DNA of 24,000 nucleotides, taken from contig NZ_FOMJ01000005.1 in assembly GCF_900112605.1 (NCBI RefSeq), positions 59,199-83,198 of the forward strand. The letters are read 5' to 3'. Below, piece by piece: positions 1 to 16,900 of this stretch. The DNA comes from Thiohalospira halophila DSM 15071 (GTDB lineage Bacteria > Pseudomonadota > Gammaproteobacteria > Thiohalospirales > Thiohalospiraceae). Every line of letters begins with the position of its first letter. Within the stretch, counting starts at the first letter, position 1. The notes under the pieces are model-generated. The model had not been told where the DNA came from. It was given only the letters and a program-made list of their open reading frames with translations, and did not search any database. The translations under genes were made by a program, and so were the position numbers.

Positions 1-1170
1 GTAGTCCTCCTTGCTCAGCTCCCGGACTCGGGTATCGGATGCCTCGGCAACACCGCGCTTGATGGCTTCGTACTGGAGGGGGTAGGGGTACTCCGGGCTC
101 TTCTCCCGAGTGATGGCCGCTGCCTGGCGCAGTGCCAGGAGGAGGCTGCGGGGCGCGATTCGCCCATGGGCATCGGCCAGGTGGCCGGTGATCCAGGTAT
201 AGGTGTACCCCCGCCGATGGTTGGTCCCCATGTAGGGGCCTGCGAGGGTTTCCAGGAGCGGACGCTGGCTCTTCTCGTTGCCGCGCACCTCGTCCGGAAG
301 GAGATAGAAACCATGGAGCCCGGGCCACTCCAGACCGGTGACCTTCTCCGCCATCTTCAAAAAGACCTCACTCGCGGGCCCATTGGCCAGGGTGTGGAAG
401 AGCAGGCCGTAGAGATCCACCGGCCGCCAGGCCAGGTCCACGCGGTTATGCAGGAGCTTGGAGCTGTCGCGGAAATCGAAGACCCCCTCGTCCTCCTCCA
501 TATCCGGCCGGATGAAGAACTTCATCCGGATATTCGGGTACGGACGGCAGGCCAGGGCCACCTCCAGGGCACCGCGGGTCAGGGCACGGACACTCTCCCA
601 GCTCCCCGGCGCGATAGCATCCAGGGAATCGAAGACCAACAGCAGGTACTTCCCTTCCTGCTTCAGGGCATTGGTCGCCTGCCCCAGCAGCTCGTTGAAG
701 GCCTCCGGGTCTTCTCGGGCCCACCGAGCCGCTTCGCTGTCACGCTCCGCCGGCAAGGCTAGGTCACATACCTCAGCCAGTTTGCGGGCCAGGACACCGC
801 GCCAGATATGCCGGGGCTCCAGACCCTCCTCCAGCAGCCTCTTCAGTGTCTCCGAATCGGGATGCTTCCCACCATGCGGGTCGTTGCTGAATCCGACCCG
901 CACATAGGTAGCCCCCAGAGTAACCGGGGCGCCCGTCCCCACCAGGCGCTGTCGCGTCGCATCATCGAACAGGGCCGCCGTCCACACCGACTTGCCCGCC
1001 CCCCGCATACCGACCACCACCGTGGTATCCAGGCTGAGTGCCTTCGTATGGCTATCGGGGATATACAACTCCCCGGGCCCCGGGGGCGTCAGGTCTTCCT
1101 GAGCCGAAACGTCCGGAAGATTGCAGAAGGCCTCGCGCAGGGCCTCGCGGGCTTCAGGGTCGGGTTTCAT
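1..1170 (-). CDS. P-loop NTPase of unrecognised family, C-terminus outside the window (390 codons visible)
   Basis: Hand translation of the minus strand from ATG (1170-1168) is open for 390 codons to the window edge. It begins MKPDPEAREALREAFCNLPDVSAQEDL. Walker A GMRGAGKS, Walker B-like YLLLVFDSLD, and a later GRIAPRSLLLALRQAA segment resembling an AAA+ lid/sensor helix. The ATG overlaps the upstream stop as ATGA (1167-1170). It is missing from the ORF track because no stop lies in the window. Confidence 0.75.
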   Translation of the reverse strand, partial: MKPDPEAREALREAFCNLPDVSAQEDLTPPGPGELYIPDSHTKALSLDTTVVVGMRGAGKSVWTAALFDDATRQRLVGTGAPVTLGATYVRVGFSNDPHGGKHPDSETLKRLLEEGLEPRHIWRGVLARKLAEVCDLALPAERDSEAARWAREDPEAFNELLGQATNALKQEGKYLLLVFDSLDAIAPGSWESVRALTRGALEVALACRPYPNIRMKFFIRPDMEEDEGVFDFRDSSKLLHNRVDLAWRPVDLYGLLFHTLANGPASEVFLKMAEKVTGLEWPGLHGFYLLPDEVRGNEKSQRPLLETLAGPYMGTNHRRGYTYTWITGHLADAHGRIAPRSLLLALRQAAAITREKSPEYPYPLQYEAIKRGVAEASDTRVRELSKEDY

Positions 1171-2489
1171 TCATCACTCCCGGAATTACCCAGCAACCGG
1201 CTACCCGCCCGATCGAAGAAATCCCGATAGGCCCCTTCCAGCACGACAGGTGCCGGTCCGTTGTCGGGATCGTGAAAGGACGCCCCGCGTAGTTCCTCGG
1301 CGGCATAAACCGGGAGCGGCCAGTGCGGCATGCTCTCATCGCTCTCCTCCGGCGTCCCGGGGCTAGGCTCCTGCTCCTCGTCATAGAGCAACTGCCACGC
1401 AGCATATGAACGGTCGCGCAGGTTCTCGAAATCCCGCTCGGTTCCGCCAGCCATTGCCCCTACCATGCTCATCCGCCAGCGCAAATCCCGGTCCGGCATG
1501 CCGTATTCCACGGCCGGCGACCACCGCAAGTGCTCGAAGAGGTGCTCATAGGCGGTCCAGGTCTGCGGATCATCCCGGGCGAAGAGGAACGCGTGCGCCC
1601 CCAGCCGGGTCACCGCCGCCGCGCCGATATCATGCATCCCGGCGCGAGCGTCCAGCAGCGCCACATCGAAGGGCTCGGCCCGCGTCCGGCCCGCATTCAG
1701 GAGTTCCAGAATCGCCTCCGCGAATCCGCGCTCGACCCCGTCGCTGCCCATTACCGGCAGGTAGGCGCGGCCCAGCTTGGCGACGTAGCCCCGGGTCTCC
1801 TTCCCGAAGGCAGGGATCACCCGGATCTCCCCCGGCGTCCCCGAAGGGAGCTCGACGCTACCCAGCATGTCCTCGAAAAGGTCCTCATCGGCCTGGCCGA
1901 CCCGGCCCTCCACCAGCCAGTCCACCACCCCGTAATCCGGGCGGCGATCCCGTCGCGGATCCTCCGGGATCTGGCGCAGGAGGAGGCTCTGCAGGCCCGG
2001 GGCCTCCAGGTCCAGATCCACCGCCAGCACCCGATGGCCCTGGGCGGCCAGATGGTGGGCCCAGGCCGCAAAGGTCGTCGACCGACCCACGCCCCCCTTG
2101 AGGCTGAAGGCCACGGCCGTGGGCAGCGGGGCCTCCTCCTTCAGCGGCCTGCGCAGCCAATCCTGGTTGTTCATCAGGCGATCCACCAGATAGACCAGTA
2201 CCGGCTCTTCCTGGAGGGCGATCGCCTCCCGACTCTGGAAGATCTCCTCGGGCAGGAGGAGTTCATCCCGCGACTGCACCGCCTCCTCCGGACCGGGGCC
2301 GAAGGCCCCGAGCCTCGCGTGCAGTTCCCGGGAGAGGGTCGCCTTGTCCGCCAGCGCCTCGCCGGAGACATTCACGGCTATGGAGACCCGGCCCACCAGA
2401 TCGCGGATGAGGTAGACGGCGTCGTGGCCGCCGAGGCGCTCACCGGCGAACTCCGTTGCGATATCCAGGGCATCGTGAAAGCGGACCAT
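1167..2489 (-). CDS. ParA/MinD-like (SIMIBI class) ATPase with variant Walker A KGGVGRST, plus unassigned N- and C-terminal regions
   Basis: Part of the 456-aa ORF 1167..2537. Deviant Walker A LKGGVGRSTT (2076..2099), then VLAVDLDLEAPG and a Walker B-like FDVALLDARAG. The preferred start is ATG at 2489 (MVRFHDALD), 4 nt after the upstream TAA and preceded by GGGGA. Starts at 2510 or 2537 would overlap the upstream gene. Confidence 0.85.
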   Translation of the reverse strand: MVRFHDALDIATEFAGERLGGHDAVYLIRDLVGRVSIAVNVSGEALADKATLSRELHARLGAFGPGPEEAVQSRDELLLPEEIFQSREAIALQEEPVLVYLVDRLMNNQDWLRRPLKEEAPLPTAVAFSLKGGVGRSTTFAAWAHHLAAQGHRVLAVDLDLEAPGLQSLLLRQIPEDPRRDRRPDYGVVDWLVEGRVGQADEDLFEDMLGSVELPSGTPGEIRVIPAFGKETRGYVAKLGRAYLPVMGSDGVERGFAEAILELLNAGRTRAEPFDVALLDARAGMHDIGAAAVTRLGAHAFLFARDDPQTWTAYEHLFEHLRWSPAVEYGMPDRDLRWRMSMVGAMAGGTERDFENLRDRSYAAWQLLYDEEQEPSPGTPEESDESMPHWPLPVYAAEELRGASFHDPDNGPAPVVLEGAYRDFFDRAGSRLLGNSGSDE

Positions 2490-2493
2490 GTAC

Positions 2494-2874
2494 TTATCCC
2501 CGATAGACATTGGCAGCGATGAGAAGACGCCGGGCACAGTCCTTATGGGCCCGCATCGCTTCCTCGGTCACCGCCCCGTCTGCTTCATAGCGTTGTTCCA
2601 CATCCCAGTCGGCGAAGCGGTTGGCACCCGATAGCAGCCCAACCAGGCCAGGAAACCGTTTCTGGAAGGCCGTTGCCTGCATCTTGTTCCACAGGACATT
2701 GATATGCTTGCGGTGTTCATCCCGGAAAAAACCCATTCTTTCAAGGGCCGACTTCAGGGCGCACTCCGCCGCAAAACCGTAGTGGTGGTCGGCATTCTCC
2801 CACCGTTCCTCCTCGTCCAGTAGCCCCGCGTCCTCCCAGTGTCGCCGGGCTGCCGCAGTGTAGTCCTCCTTCAT
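2494..2874 (-). CDS. Small all-helical HEPN-like protein (126 aa), function unknown
   Basis: ORF MKEDYTAAARRHWEDAGLLDEEERWENADHHYGFAAECALKSALERMGFFRDEHRKH...EQRYEADGAVTEEAMRAHKDCARRLLIAANVYRG. The layout resembles the minimal HEPN four-helix bundle: N-terminal helix pair with an AaExaLKa-like helix and a C-terminal xRY...TEEEA...A.RLL segment. RDEHRKH fits Rx5H spacing. The start overlaps the hsdS stop as ATGA (2871-2874). Family assignment is by eye only. Confidence 0.65.
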   Translation of the reverse strand: MKEDYTAAARRHWEDAGLLDEEERWENADHHYGFAAECALKSALERMGFFRDEHRKHINVLWNKMQATAFQKRFPGLVGLLSGANRFADWDVEQRYEADGAVTEEAMRAHKDCARRLLIAANVYRG

Positions 2875-4469
2875 CCTGCCTCCTTGCTTGCCGAACCTGT
2901 TCGAGCTCTACGCCCGTTCCCGGCCTCCCGCTCATTCTGCGGCGCCCCCTGGATGCGGGCCAGTAGCTCGCTGGCCGGCTCGTCGTTGGGGTCCTGGGAG
3001 ACGAGCCGGCCCTCGAAGGCGCGCTTGAGGATGGATTGTCGAAGATTAGCTGTTCTCTCCAAATTCTCCCCAACCGCCTTCTCCAGCTCCTCAATTTGCG
3101 AACTCATACGGTCAACCTGATCCACAATCAACTCTTGCTCCGAGATCGACGGCAGGGGCACACACAAGGAAACCAATTCCTTTGCGTTTATATTATTAAC
3201 GCCACTGGTCGATTTCGCCTTCCTATCCAACTGTTTCCTTACAGGTGGACTCTGCAGAACGTACTTTAGGTACTTCGGCAATATTGATCTAGAGATTGGC
3301 CTAAGACGAATCAAGTAGCCAGCGTAAAGAAAACCTTCATGTTCAGGCCCTACAAGGCCCGCTGTCCCGACGATGGCTAGGCTTCCATTTGAACGAATTA
3401 CCAAGAGGTCGCCAGCACATAAGGCCCAGTCCCTGATCTCCCTCGTCTCGAAATCGGCGAACTTGAGGTCACTTGAGTTTACTCGCCCGGAAACAACATT
3501 GGGGATCCGTAGAACGGGTGTCGCTCCCTTATCGTAAAAGCATTTCTTAGTGGTCCCGTACTTCGGATATTCGATCAGATCCCCGAGATGGCATCGCGAC
3601 CAGCCTGTCGAGGGAATTTCTACTTGGCCGGCCAAGAGATCCTCATCGTCGGTCCAATCCTTTGGTAGCGTCGGCTTCGAAGGCTTACTGCCAGCCTTGC
3701 CGTCGGCCTCCCATTGGGCCACCTGGGTCTTCCAATCCTCCAGTTGCTGCTGGTAGCGGGCCTGGCGCTCTTCGCGGATGCGCTCCAGGAGCTGGTCGGC
3801 GCTTTCCAGCTCGTCGGCGTGGTCGCGGCGCCACTGTTCGGTGAGGCGGCCCTCGAAGGCGTTCTTGAGGAGGGATTGGCGGTAGGTCTGGAGCCGGGCG
3901 CGGGCGGTCTCCAGGTTGGCCACGCTGTCGTCCAGCTCGGAGAACAGCTCCTCGATCTTGGCGACGATGCGTTTTTGCTCCCCCAATGGGGGCAACGGGA
4001 GCGGGATGTTTTCCACCGTCCGGGAAGATAGATGCTTTACCGTGACCGATGACGTATGGGCGTGTATCGCATCAAGGTAGGGCTGGAGGCAAAAATAGAG
4101 AAATTTTTCCTCCATGAGATAGCTTTCCAAGCGGACACGGCAAACACGCTGGTTAAGTAGGGCTTTCCCCCCATTCCAGAACGCACACCTGAAATCCCCA
4201 TCCATCCCAATCAGAAGATCGCCCGAATTCACAACATATTCAGAACTATATGGCCCGTTGTAGAAATTCTCCGTTTCCCGCTGACCTACATCCCGGATGC
4301 GGATAAGAGGAAGGCCCTCGTTGTCCGTAAAATACGCAGAACTGAAGGCGGCCCCGTTTTGCACACTGGCAATCTCTTTCAGGAAGACACGCTCCCAGCG
4401 ATCAGCTTTCACGAGGAGAGGGTGTTCCCCGCTATCAACGATCTGTTGGGGGGTTAATCCAAGGGCCAT
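2871..4469 (-). CDS. hsdS: Type I restriction-modification specificity subunit HsdS (two target recognition domains, TRDs)
   Basis: 532-aa ORF with two variable TRDs. Duplicated conserved helices: LPPLGEQKRIVAKIEELFSELD...RQSLLKNAFEGRLTEQW and LPSISEQELIVDQVDRMSSQIEELE...RQSILKRAFEGRLVSQD. The ATG overlaps the hsdR stop (TAATG at 4467-4471). Confidence 0.95.
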   Translation of the reverse strand: MALGLTPQQIVDSGEHPLLVKADRWERVFLKEIASVQNGAAFSSAYFTDNEGLPLIRIRDVGQRETENFYNGPYSSEYVVNSGDLLIGMDGDFRCAFWNGGKALLNQRVCRVRLESYLMEEKFLYFCLQPYLDAIHAHTSSVTVKHLSSRTVENIPLPLPPLGEQKRIVAKIEELFSELDDSVANLETARARLQTYRQSLLKNAFEGRLTEQWRRDHADELESADQLLERIREERQARYQQQLEDWKTQVAQWEADGKAGSKPSKPTLPKDWTDDEDLLAGQVEIPSTGWSRCHLGDLIEYPKYGTTKKCFYDKGATPVLRIPNVVSGRVNSSDLKFADFETREIRDWALCAGDLLVIRSNGSLAIVGTAGLVGPEHEGFLYAGYLIRLRPISRSILPKYLKYVLQSPPVRKQLDRKAKSTSGVNNINAKELVSLCVPLPSISEQELIVDQVDRMSSQIEELEKAVGENLERTANLRQSILKRAFEGRLVSQDPNDEPASELLARIQGAPQNEREAGNGRRARTGSASKEAG

Positions 4470-7243
4470 TACGCCACCATCTCCTCATTCATCTCCTCGA
4501 TCACCTCGCCCATGCGGTCCCCGAAAAGCTGATACATGCGGCCCCGGCCGCCCTCGGCATCGAACGGTGTGTAATCCAGGTCGTCTACCTCGAATCGGAC
4601 GGAGGTGGCGATGTGGTCGCGGATCATCTCCAGCCAGCGGTGCTGCTCTTTGGTGAACTTGGGCGCGTTGCCGGCGTGCTCGCCGAAGATCCAGCGCTGG
4701 AAGTTGCGGCGCACGGTCTCGTCGAAGGGGGTGAGCTGCTCGTCCCAGCCGGCCACGCGGCGCATCAGCGCGATGATCTGGGCCAGCTCCTTTTCGGGGC
4801 GGCGGGCCTGGACCTCGTCCAGGGCGGCGTAGGCGGCCCAGACCTTCGCCGGGGCGAGGTCGGGGCGCTCCCTGCGCAGGGCCTCCAGCACCTCGCTGAT
4901 CCGGGCGCGGGTCAGCTCCTTGCGGCGGTGGGGCTCGCTGAAGAGGATGGTCAGGGCGTCCAGGTCGTCGCGGTGGGTCCGGGCCCAGTCGGCGAAGCCC
5001 TGGGCCAGGGTCTGGCGGTGGGCCTCGGTGTTCTCGGCCCAGTCGCTGGTGACCACGGCGTCCGGATTCACGTCGTCGATGACCTGCTCCTGGCGCCGCT
5101 TGATGGACTCCATGGCCTCGTGGAGGTGGCCGGTGACGGCGGCGGTGGCACGCCGGGCCCGCTCCTCCCGGGCCTGGTCGCACTGCTCCGGGGTCGGCTC
5201 CACGTGCTCGGGCAGGCCGTTGGCCGCGCGGGCCTCCTCGGCAACGCGGTCGGGATCGTCCACGGCCAGTAGCTCGGCGGCCACGGCGGGCAGATCGGGG
5301 CCGCCGGTGGCCTCGCGGATCTCGCGCTCGCCCGGCTCGTCCACCCGTTTGGCGAAGCGGGACAGGCGGCCGGCGAGGCTGCGCAGGCTCTCCTCGTCCC
5401 GCTGGCCCATGGTCACGGCCTCGATGAGGTCCTTGGTTGCCACCGAGGGCTTTCGCTCCAGGGTGCCGGTCTCCATCTTCTCGGAGTCGGTGACGCCGAC
5501 GGCGTCCACCAGCACGAAGGCCTCCTTGGGGCCGTGAGCGGCGGGGGTCACCCTGCGCAGGCCCTCGGCGTCCAGGCTGCGGGTCCCGCGGCCCACCATC
5601 TGGGTGTAATAGGTGCGGCTCTTCACGTCGCGCATGAAGAGGACGGCCTCGATGGGCTTCACGTCCGTACCGGTGGCGATCATGTCCACCGTGACGGCGA
5701 TGCGCGGGTTGTAGTCGTTGCGAAAGGCGGAGAGCACGCGGTCCGCATTCTCCTCGCTGCGGTAGGTGACCTTCTTGCAGAAGGCGTTACCGGCGTCGAA
5801 GACCTGGCGGGCGGTACGGATCACATCGTCGGCGTGGCTGTCGCTCTTGGCGAAGATCAGCGTCTTGGGCACCTCCACGCGGCCACCCTCGCCGGCCCGG
5901 TCCGGGAACATGTGCGGCAGGGCGTCGCGGTAGGCCTGAAGGACGGTGCGGATCTGGTCGGGGTTCACCACGTCGCGGTCGAGCTGGCGGCCCTCGTAGA
6001 CCACCGGCTCGTCGAGCTGCTGCCAGCGCCGCTCGCGGGAGAGGCGTTCGCGGTGCTCCACCACCTCCTCGGCCTCGATCTGGCCGCCTTCGCGGGTGCG
6101 CTCGGTGTCGATGCGCCAGATCCGGTGGTCGACATTGACCCCGTCCACCACCGATTGCTCCAGGGTGTACTCGCTGACCACGTTCTGCTGGAAGAAGGCG
6201 TAGGTCCGCTGATCGGGGGTCGCCGTAAGCCCGACGAGGAAGCTGTCGAAGTACTCCAGGACCTGGCGCCACAGGTTGTAGATGGAGCGGTGGCACTCGT
6301 CGATGACGATGACGTCGAAGAACTCCGGGGGCACGCGCTTGTTGTAGTCCACCGGCACCGGCTCCCGGTCCATCCCGGCGGGGCTGCCGGGGTGCTCCTC
6401 GGCGGTCTCGTCCAGCTCCTCGCCCTTGAGGACGGAGTACATGCGCTGGATGGTGCTGATGCAGACCTGACCGTCCGTGGGCACGTGGGACGAGGTGAGC
6501 CGCTGGACCGTGTAGAGCTCGGTGAACTTGCGGTTGTCATCCTGGGGGATGTAGTCGTGGAACTCCCCCTCGGCCTGCTTGCCGAGATTGCGGGTGTCCA
6601 CCAGGAAGAGCACCCGGCGCACACCGGCGTGTTTGAGCAGGCGGTAGATGGCCGTGATGGCGGTATAGGTCTTGCCGGCGCCGGTGGCCATCTGGATGAG
6701 GGCCCGGGGCCGGTTGCGGCGCAGGGAGTCTTCCAGGTTGTGGATGGCGGTGAACTGGCAGTCGCGCAGACCGGCGTCGGACAGCTCCGGGAGCTGCTGC
6801 AGCCGACCGCGCAGGGTGCCCGTCTCCGCCCGCCATTCCGCCAGGGTCTCCGGCCGGTGGAAGCGGAAGACCTCCCGGGAGCGGGGCTCGGGGTCGGCCC
6901 TATCGGTGAAGTAGGTGACGACCCCGGTGGTCTCGTAGCGAAAGCGAAGGTCCGCCTCGCCGACGTGCTTGAGGCCGGCATCGGCGTAGGCCGCGGTCTG
7001 CTCCTCCACGCGGTTGAGCCGCTGGCCCTCTTCCTCCCGCTTGGCCTCGATGAGACCCACGGGCGCGCCGTCCACCAGCAACAGGTAGTCCGCCGGCCCG
7101 ACCTCGGTGGGATACTCCCGTACCGCGACGCCCCGGCTGGCGGCGGGATTCAGCTCGCTGCGGCTCTGCACCTCCCAGCCCGCCTGGCGGAGCTGGTCAT
7201 CGATGTGCTCCCGGGCGTGCTGTTCGGGATCCTGATTGGACAT
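4469..7243 (-). CDS. hsdR: Type I restriction enzyme endonuclease/translocase subunit HsdR (EcoEI-type C-terminal domain)
   Basis: N-terminal PD-(D/E)xK-like ADYLLLVDGAPVGLIEAKRE. Helicase motifs MATGAGKTYTAI, VIVIDECHRS and VGLTATP. The C-terminal FTKEQHRWLEMIRDHIATS...YTPFD tail is typical of the EcoEI R C-terminal domain. Start chosen at MSNQDPEQHAREHIDDQLRQAGW (ATG 7243, AGGGAAGCAGG upstream). The 70 codons further upstream in the track ORF look non-coding. Confidence 0.95.
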   Translation of the reverse strand: MSNQDPEQHAREHIDDQLRQAGWEVQSRSELNPAASRGVAVREYPTEVGPADYLLLVDGAPVGLIEAKREEEGQRLNRVEEQTAAYADAGLKHVGEADLRFRYETTGVVTYFTDRADPEPRSREVFRFHRPETLAEWRAETGTLRGRLQQLPELSDAGLRDCQFTAIHNLEDSLRRNRPRALIQMATGAGKTYTAITAIYRLLKHAGVRRVLFLVDTRNLGKQAEGEFHDYIPQDDNRKFTELYTVQRLTSSHVPTDGQVCISTIQRMYSVLKGEELDETAEEHPGSPAGMDREPVPVDYNKRVPPEFFDVIVIDECHRSIYNLWRQVLEYFDSFLVGLTATPDQRTYAFFQQNVVSEYTLEQSVVDGVNVDHRIWRIDTERTREGGQIEAEEVVEHRERLSRERRWQQLDEPVVYEGRQLDRDVVNPDQIRTVLQAYRDALPHMFPDRAGEGGRVEVPKTLIFAKSDSHADDVIRTARQVFDAGNAFCKKVTYRSEENADRVLSAFRNDYNPRIAVTVDMIATGTDVKPIEAVLFMRDVKSRTYYTQMVGRGTRSLDAEGLRRVTPAAHGPKEAFVLVDAVGVTDSEKMETGTLERKPSVATKDLIEAVTMGQRDEESLRSLAGRLSRFAKRVDEPGEREIREATGGPDLPAVAAELLAVDDPDRVAEEARAANGLPEHVEPTPEQCDQAREERARRATAAVTGHLHEAMESIKRRQEQVIDDVNPDAVVTSDWAENTEAHRQTLAQGFADWARTHRDDLDALTILFSEPHRRKELTRARISEVLEALRRERPDLAPAKVWAAYAALDEVQARRPEKELAQIIALMRRVAGWDEQLTPFDETVRRNFQRWIFGEHAGNAPKFTKEQHRWLEMIRDHIATSVRFEVDDLDYTPFDAEGGRGRMYQLFGDRMGEVIEEMNEEMVA

Positions 7244-7279
7244 CCTGCTTCCCTGCTCTGGGCCTCGCCGCCATCCTAG

Positions 7280-7299
7280 CAGCCCCGGACCGGGGGCTG
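7280..7299 (-). terminator. GC-rich hairpin just downstream of the ilvA 3' remnant; possible displaced ilvA terminator
   Basis: Stem cagcccc (7280-7286) pairs with ggggctg (7293-7299) around a 6-nt loop. On the minus strand it sits 11 nt after the remnant TGA stop (7311-7313). There is no clear U-tract. Confidence 0.25.
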
Positions 7300-7312
7300 T
7301 GAGAGGAGCCTC

Positions 7313-7352
7313 ACCGCAGAAACAGCTCGTACGCCGGGTTCTCTGTCTCTTC
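7313..7352. repeat. 40-bp direct repeat, copy A: duplicated last 13 codons of ilvA (EETENPAYELFLR) followed by its own TGA stop at 7311-7313
   Basis: accgcagaaacagctcgtacgccgggttctcTgtctcttc matches 8129..8168 at 39 of 40 positions. The single difference (t7344 vs c8160) is a synonymous ACA/ACG Thr codon in the ilvA frame. Confidence 0.9.
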
Positions 7353-7433
7353 CGCCAGCGGGGCACAATCAGGACCATCAGCGACCATCCCTCCTTCCCC
7401 TGGCTCGAAAGTAACGCGCTGTGCCTTAGATCG

Positions 7434-7467: not shown

Positions 7468-7725
7468 ATGTACTCGGTGGAGCTTACCAAGACTGCCAGG
7501 AAGGCCCTGCTCCGTCTGCCACGCACCGACCGGCAGCGTATACAAGGCAAGCTCGAGTATCTGGCCGACAACCCGCATCATCCGGAACTCGACATCAAGC
7601 CACTGAAGGGCAGGGAAGCATGGCGATTGCGGGTCGGCGATTGGCGCATTATCTACGAGATCCATGACCAGTGGCTGGTGGTTCAGATCATCCGTATCGG
7701 AAGTCGTGGAGAGGTCTACAAATGA
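7468..7725 (+). CDS. RelE/ParE-family type II toxin (85 aa)
   Basis: MYSVELTKTARKALLRLPRTDRQRIQGKLEYLADNPHHPELDIKPLKGREAWRLRVGDWRIIYEIHDQWLVVQIIRIGSRGEVYK shows the typical RelE/ParE pattern (KxLkkLp, WRlRvGDyRiiY, vvv..IghRgevY). The stop overlaps the next start as ATGA (7722-7725). Confidence 0.9.
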   Translation: MYSVELTKTARKALLRLPRTDRQRIQGKLEYLADNPHHPELDIKPLKGREAWRLRVGDWRIIYEIHDQWLVVQIIRIGSRGEVYK

Positions 7726-8126
7726 TGGAAGAGACGGCCGACATCACCCAGATCATCCGGCGAAATGATGGCCATCCCGAATACGCCGTCGTCCCCTACG
7801 ACCAGTATCAGCGTATGCTTGAACGCATGGAGGAGCTGATCGACCTTCACGAGACCGACAAGGTCCGCGAGCGCATGCATACCGGAGAGGAAGAGTCGGT
7901 TCCACTGGAACTGGTCCAGCGCATTGATGCCGGGGAAAGCCCCGTCAGGGTCTGGCGGGAACATCGTGGTATCGAGCGCCGGGAACTTGCGGAGGCTACG
8001 GACATCGGCGACCGGGCTCTCTACATGATCGAGGCCGGCAAACGCGAACCATCGACGCGCGTACTCCGTCAGCTCGCCAGTCGACTGGACGTCGACGTCG
8101 ACGACCTCCTCCCACCGGCTGACTGA
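7722..8126 (+). CDS. Antitoxin with C-terminal XRE-type HTH and a Phd/YefM-like N-terminal segment (134 aa)
   Basis: Start MMEETAD at 7722. N-terminal GHPEYAVVPYDQYQRMLERMEELIDL resembles a Phd/YefM antitoxin N-terminus. C-terminal VRVWREHRGIERRELAEATDIGDRALYMIEAGKREPSTRVLRQLASRLDVDVDDL is an XRE/HigA-like HTH. The toxin-first order is as in HigBA. Confidence 0.85.
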   Translation: MMEETADITQIIRRNDGHPEYAVVPYDQYQRMLERMEELIDLHETDKVRERMHTGEEESVPLELVQRIDAGESPVRVWREHRGIERRELAEATDIGDRALYMIEAGKREPSTRVLRQLASRLDVDVDDLLPPAD

Positions 8127-9641
8127 CTACCGCAGAAACAGCTCGTACGCCGGGTTCTCCGTCTCTTCTTCCCAGGCGTAGCCCAGTTCCTGGAGGAACT
8201 GCTGGAAGGCGGGCTCCTCCTCCTCGGGGACCTGGAAGCCGGCGAGGACGCGGCCGTAGTCGGCGCCGTGGTTGCGGTAGTGGAACAGGGAGATGTTCCA
8301 GTCGGCGTGGAGGTGGCTGAGGAAGCGCAGCAGCGCCCCGGGCCGCTCGGGGAATTCGAAGCGGTAGAGGGTCTCCCGGCCGGCGTGGGGCGCGCGGCCG
8401 CCCACCATGTGGCGGACGTGGAGCTTGGCCATCTCGTTGTCGGTGAGATCCACCACGCCGTAGCCGGCGGCCTCCAGCTTCTCGCGGAGCTCCTCCTTCT
8501 CCGGGGCGCCGGCGTTCATGCGGATGCCGACGAAGATGTGGGCCTCGTCGGGGCCGGCGTAGCGGTAGTTGAACTCGGTGATGGAGCGGGTGCCGATGGC
8601 GTTGCAGAAGGCGCGGAAGCTGCCGGGCTGCTCGGGGATGGTCACGGCAAACAGCGCCTCGCGCCGCTCGCCCAGCTCGGCGCGCTCGGCCACGTAGCGC
8701 AGCCGGTCGAAGTTGATGTTGGCCCCGCTGACCACGGCGGCCAGGTTGGCGCCCTCCAGCCGGTGATTCTCCACGTACTGCTTGAGGCCGGCCACGCTGA
8801 GCGCCCCGGCCGGCTCGGCGATGGAGCGGGTGTTGTCGAAGATGTCCTTGATGGCGGCGCAGATGGCGTCGGTGGAGACCAGCACCACCTCGTCCACGCT
8901 CTCGCGCAGGATGCGGAAGGGCTCCTCGCCGATCCGGCGCACCGCCACGCCGTCGGCGAAGATCCCCACCTGGGGCAGCTGCACCCGCTCGCCGGCGGCC
9001 AGGGCGGAGTGCAGCGTCGGCGCATCCGCCGGCTCCACACCGATGATCCGCACGCCCGGATAGAGGGCCCGAAAGTAGGCGCTCACCCCCGCCAGAAGCC
9101 CACCACCGCCCACGGGGACGAAGACGGCCTCCAGCGGCTGCGGCGCCTGGCGGGCCAGCTCCATGGCCACCGTCCCCTGCCCGGCGATGACGTCGGGATC
9201 GTCGTAGGGCGGGATGAAGGCCATGCCGGCCTCCTCCGCGATCTGCATGCAGTGGGCGAAGGCCTCGTCGTAGGAACTGCCGTGGAGGACGATCTCCGCC
9301 CCCAGCGCCCGCACCGCCTCGATCTTGATGTCCGGCGTGGTCTTGGGCATGACGATCCGCGCCGGGATCCCGAGCCTGCGCGCCGACAGGGCCACGCCCT
9401 GGGCGTGGTTGCCGGCGGAGGCAGCAATGACGCCGCGCGCCCGCTGCTCCGGGGCGAGGTGGATGATCTTGTTGTACGCCCCGCGCAGCTTGTAGGAGAA
9501 GACCGGCTGCAGGTCCTCGCGCTTGAGGAAGACCTGGTTGCCCAGCCGGTTGGAGAGGCCGGTGGCCGGGTCCAGCGGCGTCTCCCGGGCCACGTCGTAG
9601 ACCCGGGCGGTGAGAATGCGCTTCAGGTAGGCGTCGAACAT
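8127..9641 (-). CDS. ilvA: Biosynthetic threonine ammonia-lyase (threonine dehydratase) IlvA, 504 aa
   Basis: MFDAYLKRILTARVYDVARETPLDPA...FSYKLRGAYNK (PLP lysine motif)...GGGGL..., plus the two C-terminal ACT-like regulatory repeats ending YAWEEETENPAYELFLR. Start at ATG 9641. The 814-aa track ORF is an upstream read-through extension. Confidence 0.97.
   Translation of the reverse strand: MFDAYLKRILTARVYDVARETPLDPATGLSNRLGNQVFLKREDLQPVFSYKLRGAYNKIIHLAPEQRARGVIAASAGNHAQGVALSARRLGIPARIVMPKTTPDIKIEAVRALGAEIVLHGSSYDEAFAHCMQIAEEAGMAFIPPYDDPDVIAGQGTVAMELARQAPQPLEAVFVPVGGGGLLAGVSAYFRALYPGVRIIGVEPADAPTLHSALAAGERVQLPQVGIFADGVAVRRIGEEPFRILRESVDEVVLVSTDAICAAIKDIFDNTRSIAEPAGALSVAGLKQYVENHRLEGANLAAVVSGANINFDRLRYVAERAELGERREALFAVTIPEQPGSFRAFCNAIGTRSITEFNYRYAGPDEAHIFVGIRMNAGAPEKEELREKLEAAGYGVVDLTDNEMAKLHVRHMVGGRAPHAGRETLYRFEFPERPGALLRFLSHLHADWNISLFHYRNHGADYGRVLAGFQVPEEEEPAFQQFLQELGYAWEEETENPAYELFLR
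8129..8168. repeat. 40-bp direct repeat, copy B: the functional 3' end of ilvA
   Basis: See copy A at 7313..7352. This copy encodes EETENPAYELFLR of the intact ilvA, followed by a TAG stop at 8127-8129. Confidence 0.9.
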
Positions 9642-9686
9642 GGCCGTTACGGTACCACCTCCCCCGGGGGGTGTCAGCGCGGGATC

Positions 9687-9716
9687 TGGCCGCAGCCGCC
9701 GCGGTGACCCTATAAT
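9687..9716 (+). promoter_or_regulatory. Candidate rpiA promoter
   Basis: Perfect TATAAT at 9711-9716, 34 nt upstream of the rpiA ATG. The -35 is weak (TGGCCG 9687-9692, 18-nt spacer). GGAGGAG Shine-Dalgarno at 9739-9745. Confidence 0.4.
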
Positions 9717-9749
9717 CGGCCGATTGTCATCGGGATTCGGAGGAGCACC

Positions 9750-10406
9750 ATGAACCAGGACGAGATGAAGCGCGAGGTGGCCCGGGCCGCCATCGAGTAC
9801 GTGGAGACCGACACGGTAATCGGCGTGGGCACCGGCTCCACCGCCAACTACTTCATCGACGAGCTGGCGAACATCAAGGGCCGCATCGAGGGCACCGTGG
9901 CCAGCTCCAACGCCAGCGCCGAGCGGCTCAAGGGCCACGGGATCCCGGTCTACAACCTCAACGACGTGGGCGACATCGGCCTCTACGTGGACGGCGCCGA
10001 CGAGACCACCCGCCACCTGCAGCTCACCAAGGGCGGCGGCGGCGCGCTGACGCGGGAGAAGATCGTCGCCGCCGCCAGCGAGAAGTTCGTCTGCATTGTG
10101 GACGACACCAAGGTGGTGGACATCCTGGGCGCCTTCCCGCTGCCCATCGAGGTGATCCCCATGGCGCGCAGCTACGTCGCCCGCCAGGTGGTCAAGCTGG
10201 GCGGCGAGCCGGTCCTGCGCGAGGGCTTCACCACCGACAACGGCAACCTCATCCTGGACGTCCACGGCCTCTCCATCATGGAGCCGTCCAGGCTGGAGGC
10301 GCAGCTCAACAACATCCCCGGCGTGGTCACCAACGGCCTCTTCGCCATGGACCCGGCGGATGTACTGCTCGTGGGCTCCTCCAGCGGGGTCGAGACCGTC
10401 CGCTAG
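9750..10406 (+). CDS. rpiA: Ribose-5-phosphate isomerase A
   Basis: 218 aa with [22 protein letters not shown] and [16 protein letters not shown], the canonical RpiA motifs. It is divergent from ilvA. Confidence 0.97.
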
Positions 10407-10419
10407 GGCGGCGCCAATC

Positions 10420-10541
10420 GAACGACGCAGCCGTCGTTCCGGGCGGCGCTCAGCGCCGACCCGGAACCTCGAGAACAGGCCCGCAGCAGTGCCTCGGTCC
10501 GGGGCTACGTTCTCGAGGTTCCCGCCTGCGCGGGAACGACG
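10420..10541. repeat. Composite imperfect palindrome (REP/MITE-like element or large terminator/insulator structure)
   Basis: Hairpin gaacgacg/cgtcgttc (10420-10439). Perfect 14-bp inverted repeat ggaacctcgagaac (10463-10476) / gttctcgaggttcc (10509-10522). Hairpin gttcccgc/gcgggaac (10518-10537). gaacgacg recurs at 10534-10541, so both ends carry cgtcgttcc + a short GC hairpin + ggaacctcgagaac in inverted orientation. Confidence 0.6.
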
Positions 10542-10570
10542 TCCAAGGGCAACGAGGAGGGAGCAGAGCA

Positions 10571-10774
10571 ATGGGGCGCTGGCTCATCGGCATCGGGCTG
10601 GTGCTGGTCGTCCTCGGCCTGATCTGGCCCTGGCTCGCCCGGCTGGGGCTGGGCCGGCTGCCGGGGGACATCGCCATCCAGCGGGAGGGATTCCACTTCT
10701 ACTTCCCCGTCACCACCTCGCTGCTGGTGAGCGTGGTAGTCTCCCTGCTGCTCTGGCTCTTCTTCCGGCGCTGA
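10571..10774 (+). CDS. DUF2905-family small membrane protein (67 aa)
   Basis: Two TM helices flank the GRLPGDIAIQREGFHFYFPVTTSLL signature of DUF2905. GAGGAGGGA Shine-Dalgarno upstream. Confidence 0.85.
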   Translation: MGRWLIGIGLVLVVLGLIWPWLARLGLGRLPGDIAIQREGFHFYFPVTTSLLVSVVVSLLLWLFFRR

Positions 10775-10775
10775 C

Positions 10776-11843
10776 GTGGGCCGCCGGCACGACCCCCACA
10801 AGGGCCGCGGGGCGGTGTCCAGCCCCGACAACCGCTACGCCGCCCGGCAGCGGGAGGCGGTCGACGATGGCTGGAGCGACGAGCTGGACCCCGAGCCGGC
10901 GCCGGCCACCACCCTCATCCCGCACAACACCCGCCGGATCCTCAGCTACAACGACTCCCCGGATCTCGCCTTCGACCGCACCCTGAACCCCTATCGCGGC
11001 TGCGAGCACGGCTGCATCTACTGCTACGCCCGTCCCACCCACGCCTGGCTGGACGAGTCCCCGGGCCGCGACTTCGAGACCCGGATCCACTACCGCCCCG
11101 ACGCCGCCGAGCGCCTGCGCGCGGAACTCGACCGGCCCGGCTACCAGCCGGAGACCATCGCCCTGGGCATGAACACCGACGCCTACCAGCCGGCGGAGCG
11201 GCAACTGGGGATCACCCGCTCGGTCCTGGAGGTCTGCCGGGAGACCCGCCATCCGGTGAGCCTGGTGACCAAGTCGGCCCTGGTGGAGCGGGACCGGGAT
11301 ATCCTCGGCCCCATGGCGGAAGCGGGGCTGGCCACCGTGGCCGTCTCCATCACCACCCTGGATAGCGACCTCGACCGCCGGCTGGAGCCCCGGGCGGCCG
11401 GTCCGCGCCGACGGCTGGCCACCATCCGGCGGCTGCGCGAGGCGGGGATCCCGGTGGGGGTACTGGTGGCCCCGGTGATCCCGGTCCTCACCGAGGCGGA
11501 GTTCGAGGCCATCCTGGAGGCGGCGGCCGAGGCCGGGGCGAGCTGGGCCGGCTACGTCCTGCTGCGGCTGCCCCACGAGCTGGGCGATCTCTTCCGGGAC
11601 TGGCTGGACGAGCACGCCCCCGGCCAGGCGGAGCACATCCTCTCCCGGGTCCAGCAGGCGCGGGGCGGGAAGGACTACGAGCCGAGCTTCGGCCGGCGCA
11701 TGACCGGGGAAGGACCCTGGGCGGACCTGCTGGCCCAGCGCTTCCGGCTGGCGCGGCGGAAGTTCGACCTGGAGTGGCCGCCGGTGCTGGACACCACGGC
11801 CTTCACGCCGCCCGGCGGGCGGCAGGGGGATCTCTTCGACTAG
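10776..11843 (+). CDS. PA0069-family radical SAM protein
   Basis: GTG start 1 nt after the upstream stop. CEHGCIYC (CxxxCxxC) cluster. The N-terminal GRGAVSSPDNRY and overall layout are typical of the PA0069 radical SAM family. Confidence 0.9.
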   Translation: MGRRHDPHKGRGAVSSPDNRYAARQREAVDDGWSDELDPEPAPATTLIPHNTRRILSYNDSPDLAFDRTLNPYRGCEHGCIYCYARPTHAWLDESPGRDFETRIHYRPDAAERLRAELDRPGYQPETIALGMNTDAYQPAERQLGITRSVLEVCRETRHPVSLVTKSALVERDRDILGPMAEAGLATVAVSITTLDSDLDRRLEPRAAGPRRRLATIRRLREAGIPVGVLVAPVIPVLTEAEFEAILEAAAEAGASWAGYVLLRLPHELGDLFRDWLDEHAPGQAEHILSRVQQARGGKDYEPSFGRRMTGEGPWADLLAQRFRLARRKFDLEWPPVLDTTAFTPPGGRQGDLFD

Positions 11844-12917: not shown

Positions 12918-13994
12918 ATGCCACGCCTGCCCCGCCGTCCCCTCACCATCCTCACCATCCTCATCCTGGCAGCGGCCTGGATCGGTTCCGGCGTTCTCAC
13001 TCGGCCAGCCCCCACCGCCGAAGAGACCGGGGAGCGCCCGAAAATGACCGTGGGGGTGGCCCAGCGCCGGGCCGAGCCGGTGGAGGAGCTGCTGGTCCTG
13101 CAGGGCGATGTGGAGCCGGACAGCCGCATGGTGGTCCGCGCCGAGACCGCCGGGCAGGTGGCCGAGTGGGCGGTTCCGCGCGGGGCGCAGGTGGCCGAGG
13201 GCGACCTCCTGGCGCGGCTGAAGATGGACGACCGGCAGGCGAAGCTGCGCCAGGCCGAGGCCCGGGTGGCCGGCGCCGAAAGCGACTACGAGGCCACCCG
13301 GACCATGGCCGAGGACGACTTCACCGCCGAGCTGCAGGTGGACGTCAAGCGCGCCGAGCTGGAGGCGGCCCGGGCCCAGCTGGAGGCGGTCCGCCAGGAC
13401 ATCGAGAATACCGAGCTGCGCGCGCCCATGGACGGCATCGTCAACCGCCGCATCGCCGAGCGCGGCGACTTCCTCGCCGTGGGCGGCCAGCTGGCCGAGA
13501 TCGTGGTCAATGACCCCCTGCTCGCCGTGGTTCGGGTCCCCCAGCACCGCATCCGCGATGTGGAGCCGGGGCAGGAGGCGCGCATCCGCTTCTTGGACGG
13601 CTCCACCGCCACCGGCGAGGTCACCTTCGTCGCCCCGGTGGCCGAGCCGGCCACCCGCACCTTCCGGCTGGAGGCGACCTTCCCCAACCCCGAGGGCGAA
13701 CTCCCCTCGGGGATCAGCGCCGAGGTCATCATCCCGGTGGCGGAGACGGAGGCCCACCGCGTCTCCCCCGCCCTGCTCGCCCTGGACGACGACGGCCGTC
13801 TGGGGCTCAAGGCGGTCGCCGACGGCGAGGTGGTCTTCCACGAGGTAGAGGTCATCCGCGCCGACCGCGATGGCGTCTGGGTCACCGGGGCGCCGGCGAC
13901 CCTCGACCTCATCACCGTGGGCGGCGGCTTCGTCCGCCCCGGTGAGGCGGTGGCCACCGAGCCCAGTCCGGCCCCGGGCGAGGGCCGGCCGTGA
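12918..13994 (+). CDS. Efflux RND transporter periplasmic adaptor (MFP/HlyD family)
   Basis: N-terminal TM anchor, coiled-coil hairpin (AKLRQAEARVAGAESDYE...ELEAARAQLEAVRQDIENTELRAPMDGIV), and lipoyl/beta-barrel motifs. The stop overlaps the next GTG start (GTGA, 13991-13994). Confidence 0.9.
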   Translation: MPRLPRRPLTILTILILAAAWIGSGVLTRPAPTAEETGERPKMTVGVAQRRAEPVEELLVLQGDVEPDSRMVVRAETAGQVAEWAVPRGAQVAEGDLLARLKMDDRQAKLRQAEARVAGAESDYEATRTMAEDDFTAELQVDVKRAELEAARAQLEAVRQDIENTELRAPMDGIVNRRIAERGDFLAVGGQLAEIVVNDPLLAVVRVPQHRIRDVEPGQEARIRFLDGSTATGEVTFVAPVAEPATRTFRLEATFPNPEGELPSGISAEVIIPVAETEAHRVSPALLALDDDGRLGLKAVADGEVVFHEVEVIRADRDGVWVTGAPATLDLITVGGGFVRPGEAVATEPSPAPGEGRP

Positions 13995-16900
13995 GGGCCC
14001 TCATCGCCGCCGCGGTGGACCGTGGCCGCGCCGTGCTGCTGCTGCTGGGGATCCTCCTGATCCTGGGGGCCGTGGCCTACGCCACCATCCCCAAGGAGGC
14101 CAACCCCGAGATCGACATCCCCATCTACTTCGTCACCGTCCCCTATCCCGGGATCACCTCCGAGGATGCCGAGCGCCTGCTGGTCCGCCCCCTGGAGCGG
14201 GAGCTGCAGTCGGTGGAGGGGCTGGACGAGATGCGCGCCTGGGCCGGCGAGGGCTTCGCCATGCTGCGGCTGGACTTCGAGCCCGGCTGGGACAGCCGCC
14301 AGGCTCTGGCCGACGTCCGCGAGGAGGTGGACCAGACCGAGCCGGAACTCCCCGCCGAGGCCGAGGAGCCGCGGGTAAGCGAGGTGGATGTCTCGCTCTT
14401 CCCGGTCCTCACGGCGACCCTCTCCGGCCCGGTGAGCGAGCGCTCGCTGCTGGAGACCGCCCGCGATCTGCGCGACCGCCTGGAGGCGAGCCCCGGCGTA
14501 CTGGAGGTGGACATCGGCGGCGAGCGCGAGGATGTCATGGAGATCCTGGTGGACCCGCTGGTCATGGAGTCCTACCGGATCTCCTACGCCGAACTCACCC
14601 GGGCCATCCAGCGCAACAACCAGCTGGTAACCGCCGGGGCGGTGGACACCGGCGCCGGCCGGATCGCCATCAAGGTCCCCGGCACCATCGAGGATACCGA
14701 AGCGGTCGAGAACACCGCGCTGCGCGCCGAGGACGGTACCGTGGTGCGGGTGGGCGACGTCGCCGAGGTCCGACAGACCTACAAGGACCCCGACAGCTTC
14801 GCCCGCATCGACGGCAATCCGGCGCTCTCCCTGGAGATCCGCAAGCGTACCGGGGCCAACATCCTGGAGGTAGTGGGCGAGGCCCGCCGGATCATCGAGG
14901 CCGCCCGGCAGGCGGGCCCCGAGGCACTGGAGGTACGCTACCTCCAGGATGGTGCCAAGGACGTGGCCGACTTCCTGGGCGACCTGGAGAACAACGTCAT
15001 CACCGCCGTGCTGCTGGTGATCCTGGTCATCGTCGCCGCCCTGGGGGTACGCTCCTCCCTGCTGGTGGCGGTGGCCATCCCGGGCGCCTTCCTCGGCGGC
15101 GTCCTGACCATCCACCTCATGGGCTTCACCCTCAACCTGGTGGTCCTCTTCTCCCTGATCCTGGTGGTGGGGATGCTGGTGGACGGTGCCGTGGTGGTCG
15201 CCGAGCTGGCCGACCGCTATGTCGCCGAGGGGCGCGGCCGGGCGGCGGCCTACCGCGATGCCGCCATCCGCATGGGATGGCCGGTGACCGCCGCCATCGC
15301 CACCACTCTGGCGGTCTTCTTCCCCATGCTCTTCTGGCCGGGAATGGTGGGCGAGTTCATCATCTACCTGCCGGCCACGGTGATCATCACCCTGCTCTTC
15401 TCCCTGGCCATGGCGCTCGTCTTTGTCCCGGCTCTGGGATCGTTCATCGGACCGCGCCAGGCGACCAACCCGGAGCTGGTGCGCCAGATCCGCGCCGCCG
15501 AGGCCGGCCGCTGGGAGGAGCTGGGCCGCCTCACCCGGGTCTATACCGACGCCCTGGCCGCTGCCTGCCGCCGGCCGGGGTTCACCCTGCTGGTCACGGC
15601 TACCATCACGGCCGCCCTCTACGCCGGCTGGGCCGTCCACGGCAAGGGGACCTCCTTCTTCCCCGACGTGGAGCCGCGCTTCGCCCAGATCCAGGTGCAG
15701 GCGCGGGGGGACCTCTCGGTCTGGGAGGCGGACGACCTGGTCCGCCGCGTCGAGGACCGGATCGCCGGGACCGACGGCGTAAAGACCCGCTATGCCCGCA
15801 CCATCGCCTCTCAACAGCGCCGCCTGGAGGGGGACTACCCCGAGGACACCATCGGCATCATCCAGCTGGAGCTCTCCGACTGGCGCACCCGCCGCCCCGC
15901 CAGCGAGGTCCTGGCCGAGCTTCGCCAGCACACCGCCGACCTGCCCGGCCTGAAGATCCAGGTCCGCAAGCAGGAGCGCGGCCCCACCGCCGGCAAACCG
16001 GTGGTGGTGGAGGTCCGCGGCACCGACGACGAGGCCATGGACGCGGCGGTGGAGCAGATCCGGGCCACCATGGCCGAGCTGGGCGGCTTTATCGACGTCT
16101 CCGACGACCGGCCGCCGCCGGGCGTGGAGGTGGAGCTACGGGTGGACCGGGAGGAGGCCGCCCGCCACGGGGTGGACATCGCCCTGCTGGGCCAGGGGCT
16201 GCAGACGCTCACCGACGGCATGCTCCTGGGCACCTACCACCCCGAGTTCACCGACGAAGCGGTGGACATCCGCCTGCGGCTGCCGGCGGATGCACGCCAC
16301 CTCCAGCAGCTGGCCACCCTGAACCTGCCCACGGAGCAGGGGCTGGTGCCGCTGCGCAACTTCGCCACCCTGGAGCCGGTGGAGGCCACCGGCCTCATCA
16401 AGCGCCGGGACGCGCGCCGGGCGCACACCATCGAGGCGGACGTGGCCGCCGGCGAGCTGGTGGACGAGCGCACCACCGCCCTGCAGACGGCGCTGGACGA
16501 GGCCGAGTGGCCCGAGGGAGTGAACTACGCCTTCCGCGGGGAGAGCGAGGACATGGCCGAGTCATCGCGCTTCCTGGTCCGCGCCTTCCTCTTCGCCGTG
16601 GCGCTGATGGTCGTGATCCTGGTGGTCCAGTTCAACCGCTTCACCCAGGCGGCCCTGGTCCTCTCCGCCATCCTCTTCTCCACCGCCGGGGTACTGGTCG
16701 GCCTGCTCATCCGCGGCGAGCCCTTCGGGATCGTCATGAGCGGCATCGGTACCCTGGCCCTGGCCGGCATCGTGGTGAACAACAACATCGTCCTCATCGA
16801 CACCTACAACGTCCTGCGCCGGGACGACGGCCTGGAGCCACTGGAGGCGGCCCTGCGCACCGGGGCCCAGCGCGCGCGGCCGGTGATCCTCACCGCCATC

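Follow-up and report, generated by a model that had tools for sequence, protein, structure and literature searches.

In 2024, Payne, Hughes, Fineran and Jackson predicted phage defence genes by 'guilt-by-embedding' (bioRxiv 10.1101/2024.01.29.577857). From BREX, DISARM and type I restriction-modification (R-M) operons they gathered the genes lying inside, and 145 'phage defence candidates' were retained after curation. One of these is PDC-M28, which goes back to cassette CAS_00115 (three families, count 121), marked 'Assign as candidate PDC-M28' in their Table S8. Only the Hma-embedded candidates HEC-01 to HEC-09 were assayed, and the accessible parts of the preprint contained no phenotype, domain analysis or mechanism for PDC-M28. 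Here, we analysed a stretch of 24,000 nt from the genome of Thiohalospira halophila DSM 15071 (the window), in which three adjacent genes, A (orf126), B (the ATPase gene) and C (the third gene), lie next to genes of a type I R-M system. By profile comparison, this trio is one copy of the catalogued anti-phage candidate PDC-M28, itself a prediction.

The three proteins matched the three PDC-M28 models of the PADLOC database (PADLOC-DB) from one end to the other, with an identical gene order and no structural difference. Gene A (2494..2874, minus strand; 126 aa) matched PDC-M28A with E = 8.8e-38 (residues 1–118 on profile positions 1–126 of 138), and gene B (1167..2489, minus strand; 440 aa) matched PDC-M28B with E = 2.7e-122 (residues 1–432 on profile positions 1–432 of 438). 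Gene C (1..1170, minus strand), of whose 493 codons 390 lie in the window and the remainder beyond base 1, matched PDC-M28C with E = 1.9e-127 over profile positions 5–385 of 480, the match ending at the window edge. The genes were adjacent and co-directional in the order A-B-C, which is the PDC-M28 arrangement, both in the window and on a longer contig described below. No defence model of PADLOC-DB other than PDC-M28 was matched by the trio proteins. A preliminary description of this DNA had proposed a novel defence or R-M-guarding module and had recommended a PADLOC run as confirmation that the trio was not a known system. The defence role remains plausible, but the novelty does not stand: the family is already in PADLOC-DB, having been found by Payne et al. 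with the same logic of embedding in type I R-M, BREX or DISARM operons.

Apart from PDC-M28, individual components of the locus resemble several described systems. The HEPN protein AbiV of Lactococcus (type III toxin-antitoxin/abortive infection) is an RNase with rRNA as its substrate (bioRxiv 10.1101/2024.05.05.592566). PrrC is a single polypeptide comprising an ABC-type ATPase and an anticodon nuclease. According to Payne et al., it occurs almost exclusively inside type I R-M loci (10.1101/2024.01.29.577857). Further points of comparison are the STAND sensors (Avs/bNACHT) and the ParA/MinD/Soj ATPases.

Position of the trio in the R-M operon

The trio belonged to a co-directional cluster of six genes that began with hsdR (4469..7243, minus strand; 924 aa), encoding the type I restriction subunit (Pfam ResIII, 1.2e-38; EcoEI_R_C, 1.2e-34, as terminal domain; HSDR_N; PADLOC REase_I). 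It was followed by hsdS (2871..4469, minus strand; 532 aa), encoding the specificity subunit (Pfam Methylase_S, 4.3e-34; PADLOC Specificity_I, 1e-115), and by the three genes of the trio. At all four junctions (hsdR/hsdS, hsdS/A, A/B and B/C), start and stop codons overlapped or almost touched, as had been described for these minus-strand cistrons with essentially no intergenic DNA. In minus-strand reading, the hsdR stop and the hsdS start overlapped by 1 nt in GCG-TAATG-GCC (4467–4471), and the hsdS stop and the gene A start overlapped as ATGA (2871–2874). Gene A ended in TAA (2494–2496), with GGGGA just 5' of it, and was separated by GTAC from the ATG of gene B at 2489. The stop of gene B and the start of gene C overlapped as ATGA within GAATGA (1167–1170).

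The reading frame of gene C was open to base 1 of the window over its 390 codons, and hsdM lay beyond the window. The exact sequence of gene B, whose identical NCBI entry comes from T. halophila DSM 15071, was found on a longer public contig of 12.1 kb (locus L001), which contained the complete gene C (493 aa) and, starting 39 nt beyond it, hsdM (503 aa; HsdM_N and N6_Mtase), with the start codon TTG and GGAGG ahead of it. The gene order on this contig was hsdR-hsdS-A-B-C-hsdM. The host type I R-M operon was thus complete, with HsdR and HsdS encoded in the window and HsdM on L001. With hsdM beginning so close to the end of gene C, the trio lies inside the operon, flanked by hsdS and hsdM, and is not operon-terminal; its earlier placement at the 3' end of the R-M operon had to be revised.

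The GC content was 0.51–0.60 in hsdS, 0.63–0.70 in the trio and 0.66–0.75 in hsdR, and the housekeeping flanks also exceeded hsdS. At third codon positions, it was 0.65 for hsdS, 0.69–0.82 for the trio and approximately 0.92 for hsdR and hsdM. As the value of hsdS lies far below those of hsdR and hsdM, this suggests that hsdS, and perhaps the trio too, was acquired or exchanged later than the R and M genes.

No Rfam family matched in the window, and a promoter and terminator scan did not exceed shuffled controls. Therefore, neither an internal transcription signal nor a candidate for an RNA antitoxin was found.

Other genes of the conflict type were present on both sides of the operon. Directly upstream of hsdR and divergent from it (window positions 7468–8126, plus strand), a ParE-family toxin gene (85 aa, PF05016, E = 6e-13) overlapped an HTH_3 antitoxin-like gene (135 aa). 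This pair, the trio and the R-M operon make up a small defence/toxin-antitoxin island adjoining ilvA. On L001, 3' of hsdM and beyond the window (9339–10863), a gene with HTH and Peptidase_M78 domains (ImmA/IrrE-like, 354 aa) overlapped a DUF3368 gene (PIN-like, 159 aa), a further toxin-antitoxin- or Abi-like pair of the same island.

Protein families of the trio

The AF2 model of protein A (31-sequence alignment) was a helical bundle with a pLDDT of 81.5 and a pTM of 0.82. Its nine best Foldseek matches in the PDB were all HEPN proteins (probability 0.93–1.0, TM 0.47–0.67), in agreement with the HEPN-like character first ascribed to orf126. The PDB neighbours included 1wol, 1o3u, 2hsb, 2q00, 3o10 and 1ufb, and the proteins ST0689, TM0613, AF0298, SsR10, the sacsin HEPN domain and TT1696. 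No Pfam or NCBIfam model matched gene A, and PDB profile searches by sequence (two profiles) gave nothing meaningful. When 1.84 billion representatives were searched with a profile, 1019 relatives were obtained at E ≤ 1e-3; among the 150 relatives listed, nearly all were stand-alone proteins of roughly 105–180 aa. In a set of 86 diverse relatives, PF18728 HEPN_AbiV was matched weakly by 31 (best 8e-5) and PF05168 HEPN weakly by six (best 3e-4). Five residues were invariant in this set (R11, E37, H57, R95 and Y96). H57 is the histidine of the motif 51-RDEHRKH-57 (R51-x5-H57 in the window protein), which was present in the translations, as were the other motifs quoted in the preliminary description (SLKGGVGRST, GMRGAGKS and LLLVFDSLD). 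Judged by the model and the profile matches of its relatives, protein A has a HEPN fold and stands closest to the classical and AbiV types, with a strongly conserved polar cluster.

The AbiV protein has AF0298 (2HSB), TT1696 (1UFB) and sacsin (3O10) as PDB neighbours (10.1101/2024.05.05.592566), all of them common to the gene A model. Both are small HEPN folds, and RDEHRKH has the same form as 91-RNHKSKH-97 of AbiV. In contrast, protein A comprises 126 aa, whereas the residue numbering of AbiV reaches at least 199; gene A of the window had no significant match to PF18728, and the motif arginine was not conserved in the A family. Beside gene A there was also no space for an RNA antitoxin (abiV2), with overlapping open reading frames (ORFs) on both sides, and gene A was always accompanied by two NTPase genes. 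An assignment of gene A as an AbiV system, i.e., HEPN_AbiV with an RNA antitoxin, was rejected for the missing PF18728 match, the lack of non-coding space and the absence of an Rfam match.

Gene B matched the NCBIfam family NF047398 'KGGVGR-motif variant AAA ATPase' (AAA_KGGVGR; 168.7 bits, cutoff 90) and Pfam CbiA (29.3 bits, cutoff 25.4), which bore out its first description as a KGGVGR ParA-like ATPase. It belongs to the ParA/MinD (SIMIBI) class of NTPases, its P-loop being the variant KGGVGR(S/T)T, read as SLKGGVGRST in the translation. Three stretches were invariant in 30 homologues: K131-G-G-V-G-R136-[ST]-T, DLDLEAPG and LLDxRAGxHDIG. All 30 kept the signature lysine of the deviant Walker A motif (xKGG; K131), and in all 30 the canonical P-loop lysine (GK[ST]) was replaced by Arg136. 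Protein B shares with ParA, MinD and Soj a deviant Walker A motif with its signature lysine, the aspartates of DxD and Walker B, and a CbiA match. It differs from them in the arginine of the P-loop, in an extra N-terminal domain of 120 aa and C-terminal domain of 110 aa, and in lacking a ParB or MinE partner. Moreover, its similarity to the solved Soj, MinD, Mrp and ParA proteins was confined to the P-loop region in a PDB profile search. The family-specific terminal parts (N-terminal, approximately residues 1–120; C-terminal extension, approximately 330–440) matched nothing in Pfam when searched in isolation. In P-loop NTPases generally, arginine in place of the P-loop lysine leads one to expect weak or no hydrolysis. 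Because of this replacement, protein B is predicted, by analogy, to bind nucleotide with slow or no hydrolysis. A literature search for KGGVGR and Sll1717 (a family met with gene C below) returned nothing relevant in paper texts, and ParA or MinD components were not mentioned in the DefensePredictor and BREX-diversity papers.

Gene C had been described as a second P-loop NTPase, and its matches agreed with this. Pfam AAA_16 was matched at a borderline 36.1 bits (cutoff 32.6), the NCBIfam Sll1717 family at 58 bits, below its cutoff of 75, and NACHT faintly (E = 0.23). The Walker A motif was VVVGMRGAGKS (core GMRGAGKS) and the Walker B motif YLLLVFDSLD (core LLLVFDSLD); R56, G57, G59, K60 and D181 were invariant in 48 sequences. 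We take the DSLD of Walker B to resemble the DGLDE signature of NACHT proteins. A PDB profile search by sequence gave nothing meaningful. The AF2 model of a homologue, P0154 (93% identical; pLDDT 92.5), had its best Foldseek matches in the PDB among Cdc6, Orc1 and ORC2 proteins, at 2e-6 to 1e-4 (1fnn 2.2e-6, 1w5t 2.5e-6, 2qby 3.6e-6). Further matches were ClpA, the Dark apoptosome (5e-4) and Avs3 (9e-3), and the global TM of the fold matches was low (0.3–0.38). In the model, the C-terminal half was helical and winged-helix-like, with short helices and hairpins. No repeat-type sensor family (TPR, WD40 or LRR) was found in Pfam. As modelled, protein C is a minimal ORC/Cdc6/STAND-type AAA+ protein without a repeat sensor.

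Protein C resembles the STAND sensors in its AAA_16-type P-loop, in the NACHT-like DSLD of Walker B and in its fold matches to Dark and Avs3, and both the trio and the STAND systems would couple an NTPase switch to an effector. However, protein C comprises only 493 aa, without a repeat sensor domain or a fused effector, and its best matches are Cdc6/ORC proteins rather than Avs. In addition, a separate ParA-class protein is obligatory in the trio.

The trio in other genomes

Relatives of gene B were sought in one genome per species, and 516 were confirmed. The best 80 loci were compared together with L001 (81 loci in total), using iterated HMMs built from the L001 proteins; hsdM, hsdS and hsdR were searched for within 10 kb. 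The 80 loci spanned Gamma-, Beta- and Alphaproteobacteria, Myxococcota, Acidobacteriota, Nitrospirota, Chloroflexota, Cyanobacteria, Planctomycetota, Deinococcota and Mycobacteriaceae. Gene A was present in 78, gene B in 81 and gene C in 79 of the 81 loci, always in the order A-B-C and on one strand. With one exception, the missing copies of A or C fell at contig ends, so that the genes were co-linear wherever the contig allowed, and the three do co-occur as a unit. Overlaps of 4 nt were found at 41 of 78 A/B and 39 of 79 B/C junctions, and nearly all other junctions lay within approximately 12 nt. Since coupled junctions recur across the 81 loci, the tight packing of the trio is not due to chance. 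No fourth gene was conserved, the largest cluster of flanking genes being found in 9 of 81 loci.

Homologues of hsdM, hsdS or hsdR were found in L001 and in none of the 80 other loci. Among the two nearest genes on each side (244 ORFs), most were housekeeping genes and a few were mobile-element genes; the PADLOC matches listed for these neighbours in the 80 other loci included no type I R-M model. Single strong defence matches were scattered among them (PglX, BrxC, PglZ, DpdF, DRT, GajB, PtuA, DrmD, PD-Lambda-2 and PsyrT), and defence or toxin-antitoxin genes occurred in roughly half of the annotated contexts. The closest relatives of the window trio, with gene B products 66–79% identical, lay in contexts unrelated to R-M.

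Individual loci illustrated this variety. In a Chromatiaceae metagenome-assembled genome (L044, 2838–17173), the trio was nested in a BREX cluster, with PglX upstream and A-B-C followed by BrxC and PglZ, all on one strand; PglX was apparently split there into two ORFs (2838–5393 and 5816–7354). In L089, the trio lay directly 3' of a PLD-SNF2 helicase gene and a type ISP-like R-M gene, and in L085 (Thioalkalivibrio) it shared an island with a NERD-UvrD helicase gene and the toxin-antitoxin pairs HicAB and YoeB. The flanks in L082, L090 and L091 were plain housekeeping or biosynthetic genes. In L092, with Calvin-cycle (housekeeping) flanks, the trio was located between two 98%-identical direct copies of a fructose-bisphosphate aldolase/transketolase-fragment segment (fba-tkt'; 8014–8313 and 12925–13224, at least 300 nt, 4911 nt apart), an arrangement suggestive of an insertion that duplicated its target. 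The trio of L083 adjoined a Schlafen/AlbA_2 protein gene. There, 3' of the trio (12939–14446), a gene with SLFN_AlbA_2 and HATPase_c_4 domains was followed by a short CbiA/ParA-type ATPase gene (226 aa), and the two may be another ParA-containing defence-like pair. An uncultured gammaproteobacterial contig (L019, 487–3024) encoded A and B but no homologue of C. Next to B lay an ORF of 311 aa in which a TIR_2 domain (E = 3e-13) was joined to an S4 domain resembling the C-terminal half of ribosomal protein S4. The contig is either a real A-B-TIR variant or chimeric.

These data bear on the proposal that the trio guards or backs up the R-M system, monitoring the type I enzyme as PrrC does with EcoprrI and firing when a phage inhibits restriction. 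The translational coupling of the trio inside the hsdR-hsdS-...-hsdM cluster of T. halophila speaks for such a guard, as does the precedent of embedded defence genes such as PrrC. Like PrrC and RloC, the trio is nested in a type I R-M operon and combines NTPases with a HEPN-type module. It differs, however, in being made of three proteins with ParA-class and AAA+ ATPases, and in almost never adjoining type I R-M genes. No PrrC or RloC model of PADLOC was matched at E ≤ 0.1, and an assignment of the trio to PrrC/RloC was rejected on this ground, on the other ATPase classes and on the lack of an obligate R-M link. The same cassette is, moreover, found in BREX and beside a type ISP-like gene, and a function tied to a specific R-M partner could not persist across such varied contexts. 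A guard of the type I enzyme is therefore very unlikely, and the preliminary idea of a PrrC-like analogue, together with the association with hsdS, hsdR or hsdM expected elsewhere, found no support in the 80 other loci. An obligate link of the trio to either R-M or BREX was likewise rejected, as hsdM, hsdS and hsdR homologues were confined to L001 and BREX nesting to L044, with otherwise unrelated flanks.

Homologues of gene B were also found on 17 plasmids, including conjugative IncF and MOBF types. The whole trio was annotated in both plasmid loci examined, one on an IncF plasmid of Enterobacter and the other on a plasmid of Burkholderia glumae, both plasmids being conjugative; the Enterobacter copy of the trio had no match in E. 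coli DNA. A copy in Enterobacter bugandensis lies on pSurvcare220 (NZ_CP039454.1, 137389–140719; FBF69_RS23925-35). Gene B had no match in 50,697 phage records. Plasmid carriage would be expected if the trio served to maintain mobile elements, with B as a ParA-type partition ATPase, C as an ORC/Cdc6-like replication initiator and A as a small adaptor, without any role in conflict. The ParA/MinD class of B and the archaeal Cdc6/Orc1 initiators among the best PDB matches of C would fit such a role. We nevertheless regard it as highly improbable. No ParB, MinE or centromere partner, integrase or replicon gene was conserved beside the trio, the Pfam content of the neighbours was heterogeneous, and the carrier plasmids had their own RepA. 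The cassette sits within operons whose stop and start codons overlap, the P-loop of B is without the canonical lysine, A has a HEPN rather than a DNA-binding adaptor fold, and the phage records contained no match.

Alternatively, the trio could be a selfish addiction or stabilisation module, or serve in anti-plasmid or inter-element competition, with a HEPN toxin restrained by two NTPases and stabilising the locus or plasmid that carries it. Its presence on conjugative plasmids, the adjoining toxin-antitoxin modules and recombinases, its insertion at many unrelated sites and the fact that HEPN proteins are often toxins all speak for this possibility. Three large, strictly co-conserved genes with two NTPases, on the other hand, exceed the complexity of known toxin-antitoxin systems, and immunity would account just as well for the embedding in R-M and BREX operons and for the defence neighbours. 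Both roles are compatible, and we consider addiction or competition as the explanation rather unlikely.

The best reading of the genome comparisons is that the trio is an autonomous, horizontally mobile three-gene cassette, independent of R-M across genomes. Its autonomy, its mobility and its occurrence in many unrelated sites argue against its depending on the type I enzyme in the manner of PrrC. The cassette would then not need the R-M enzyme, and its nesting in R-M or BREX operons would be best read as an occasional landing site rather than a functional dependency.

A candidate immune cassette and its possible mechanism

On balance, the PDC-M28 trio is probably a self-contained mobile immune or conflict cassette, a split NTPase-switch module that is likely of the abortive-infection type. 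A role in immunity or conflict is the best reading because of the defence or toxin-antitoxin contexts in about half of the annotated loci, the carriage on plasmids and the combination of a HEPN protein with two switch NTPases, one of them STAND-like. In T. halophila, the cassette would have landed between hsdS and hsdM of the type I R-M operon and be expressed within the six-gene cluster. The minimal ORC/Cdc6/STAND-like AAA+ protein C may sense an infection cue, either a foreign protein or a nucleic acid. Protein B, a putative ParA/MinD-type nucleotide-dependent dimerisation switch, may act through its private N- and C-terminal domains as a scaffold or adaptor that gates A. Protein A, with its invariant R11/E37/H57/R95/Y96 cluster, would serve as the effector, in all probability as an RNase, and its release or dimerisation would arrest translation and lead to abortive infection.

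Several observations weigh against this interpretation. The Foldseek E-values of the HEPN matches of gene A were weak (0.03–0.9), and gene A of the window matched no Pfam HEPN model at E ≤ 0.1. Of the Rx5H-compatible motif noted in the preliminary description, the histidine was invariant (86/86), but an arginine 5–7 residues upstream of H57 was present in only 23 of the 86 relatives; as the family as a whole does not conserve the canonical Rx4-6H, the RNase activity of A is uncertain. The N- or C-terminal domain of protein B could hold the real effector. The flanks were plain housekeeping genes in about half of the annotated contexts, and PDC-M28, a predicted candidate, was absent from the paper texts searched. 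The roles of C, B and A as sensor, adaptor and effector are ones that we infer, with much less certainty than the immune role itself.

It is also possible, albeit on a more tentative footing, that PDC-M28 is a genuine immune system with a mechanism of a new type, and the first to centre on a protein of the ParA/MinD class. The Lys-to-Arg variant would then serve as a nucleotide-locked dimerisation scaffold that couples a minimal ORC/Cdc6/STAND-like sensor to an AbiV-type HEPN RNase with a non-canonical, invariant R11/E37/H57/R95/Y96 site. The system would be modular at its third position, the AAA+ protein being occasionally replaced by a TIR effector.

The family itself was already catalogued; new beyond the PADLOC entry are the domain assignments and the evidence for independence from R-M. 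For annotation, the T. halophila locus teaches that nesting in an R-M operon indicates a landing site and is not evidence of functional coupling. The PDC-M28 family is widespread and unusual in its composition, and immunity would be a new role for a ParA-class switch with the Lys-to-Arg change. If defence is shown, a ParA/MinD-class switch with a natural Lys-to-Arg P-loop would join the short list of prokaryotic immune NTPase families, and the trio would provide a compact three-protein model of two different NTPase switches gating a HEPN effector.

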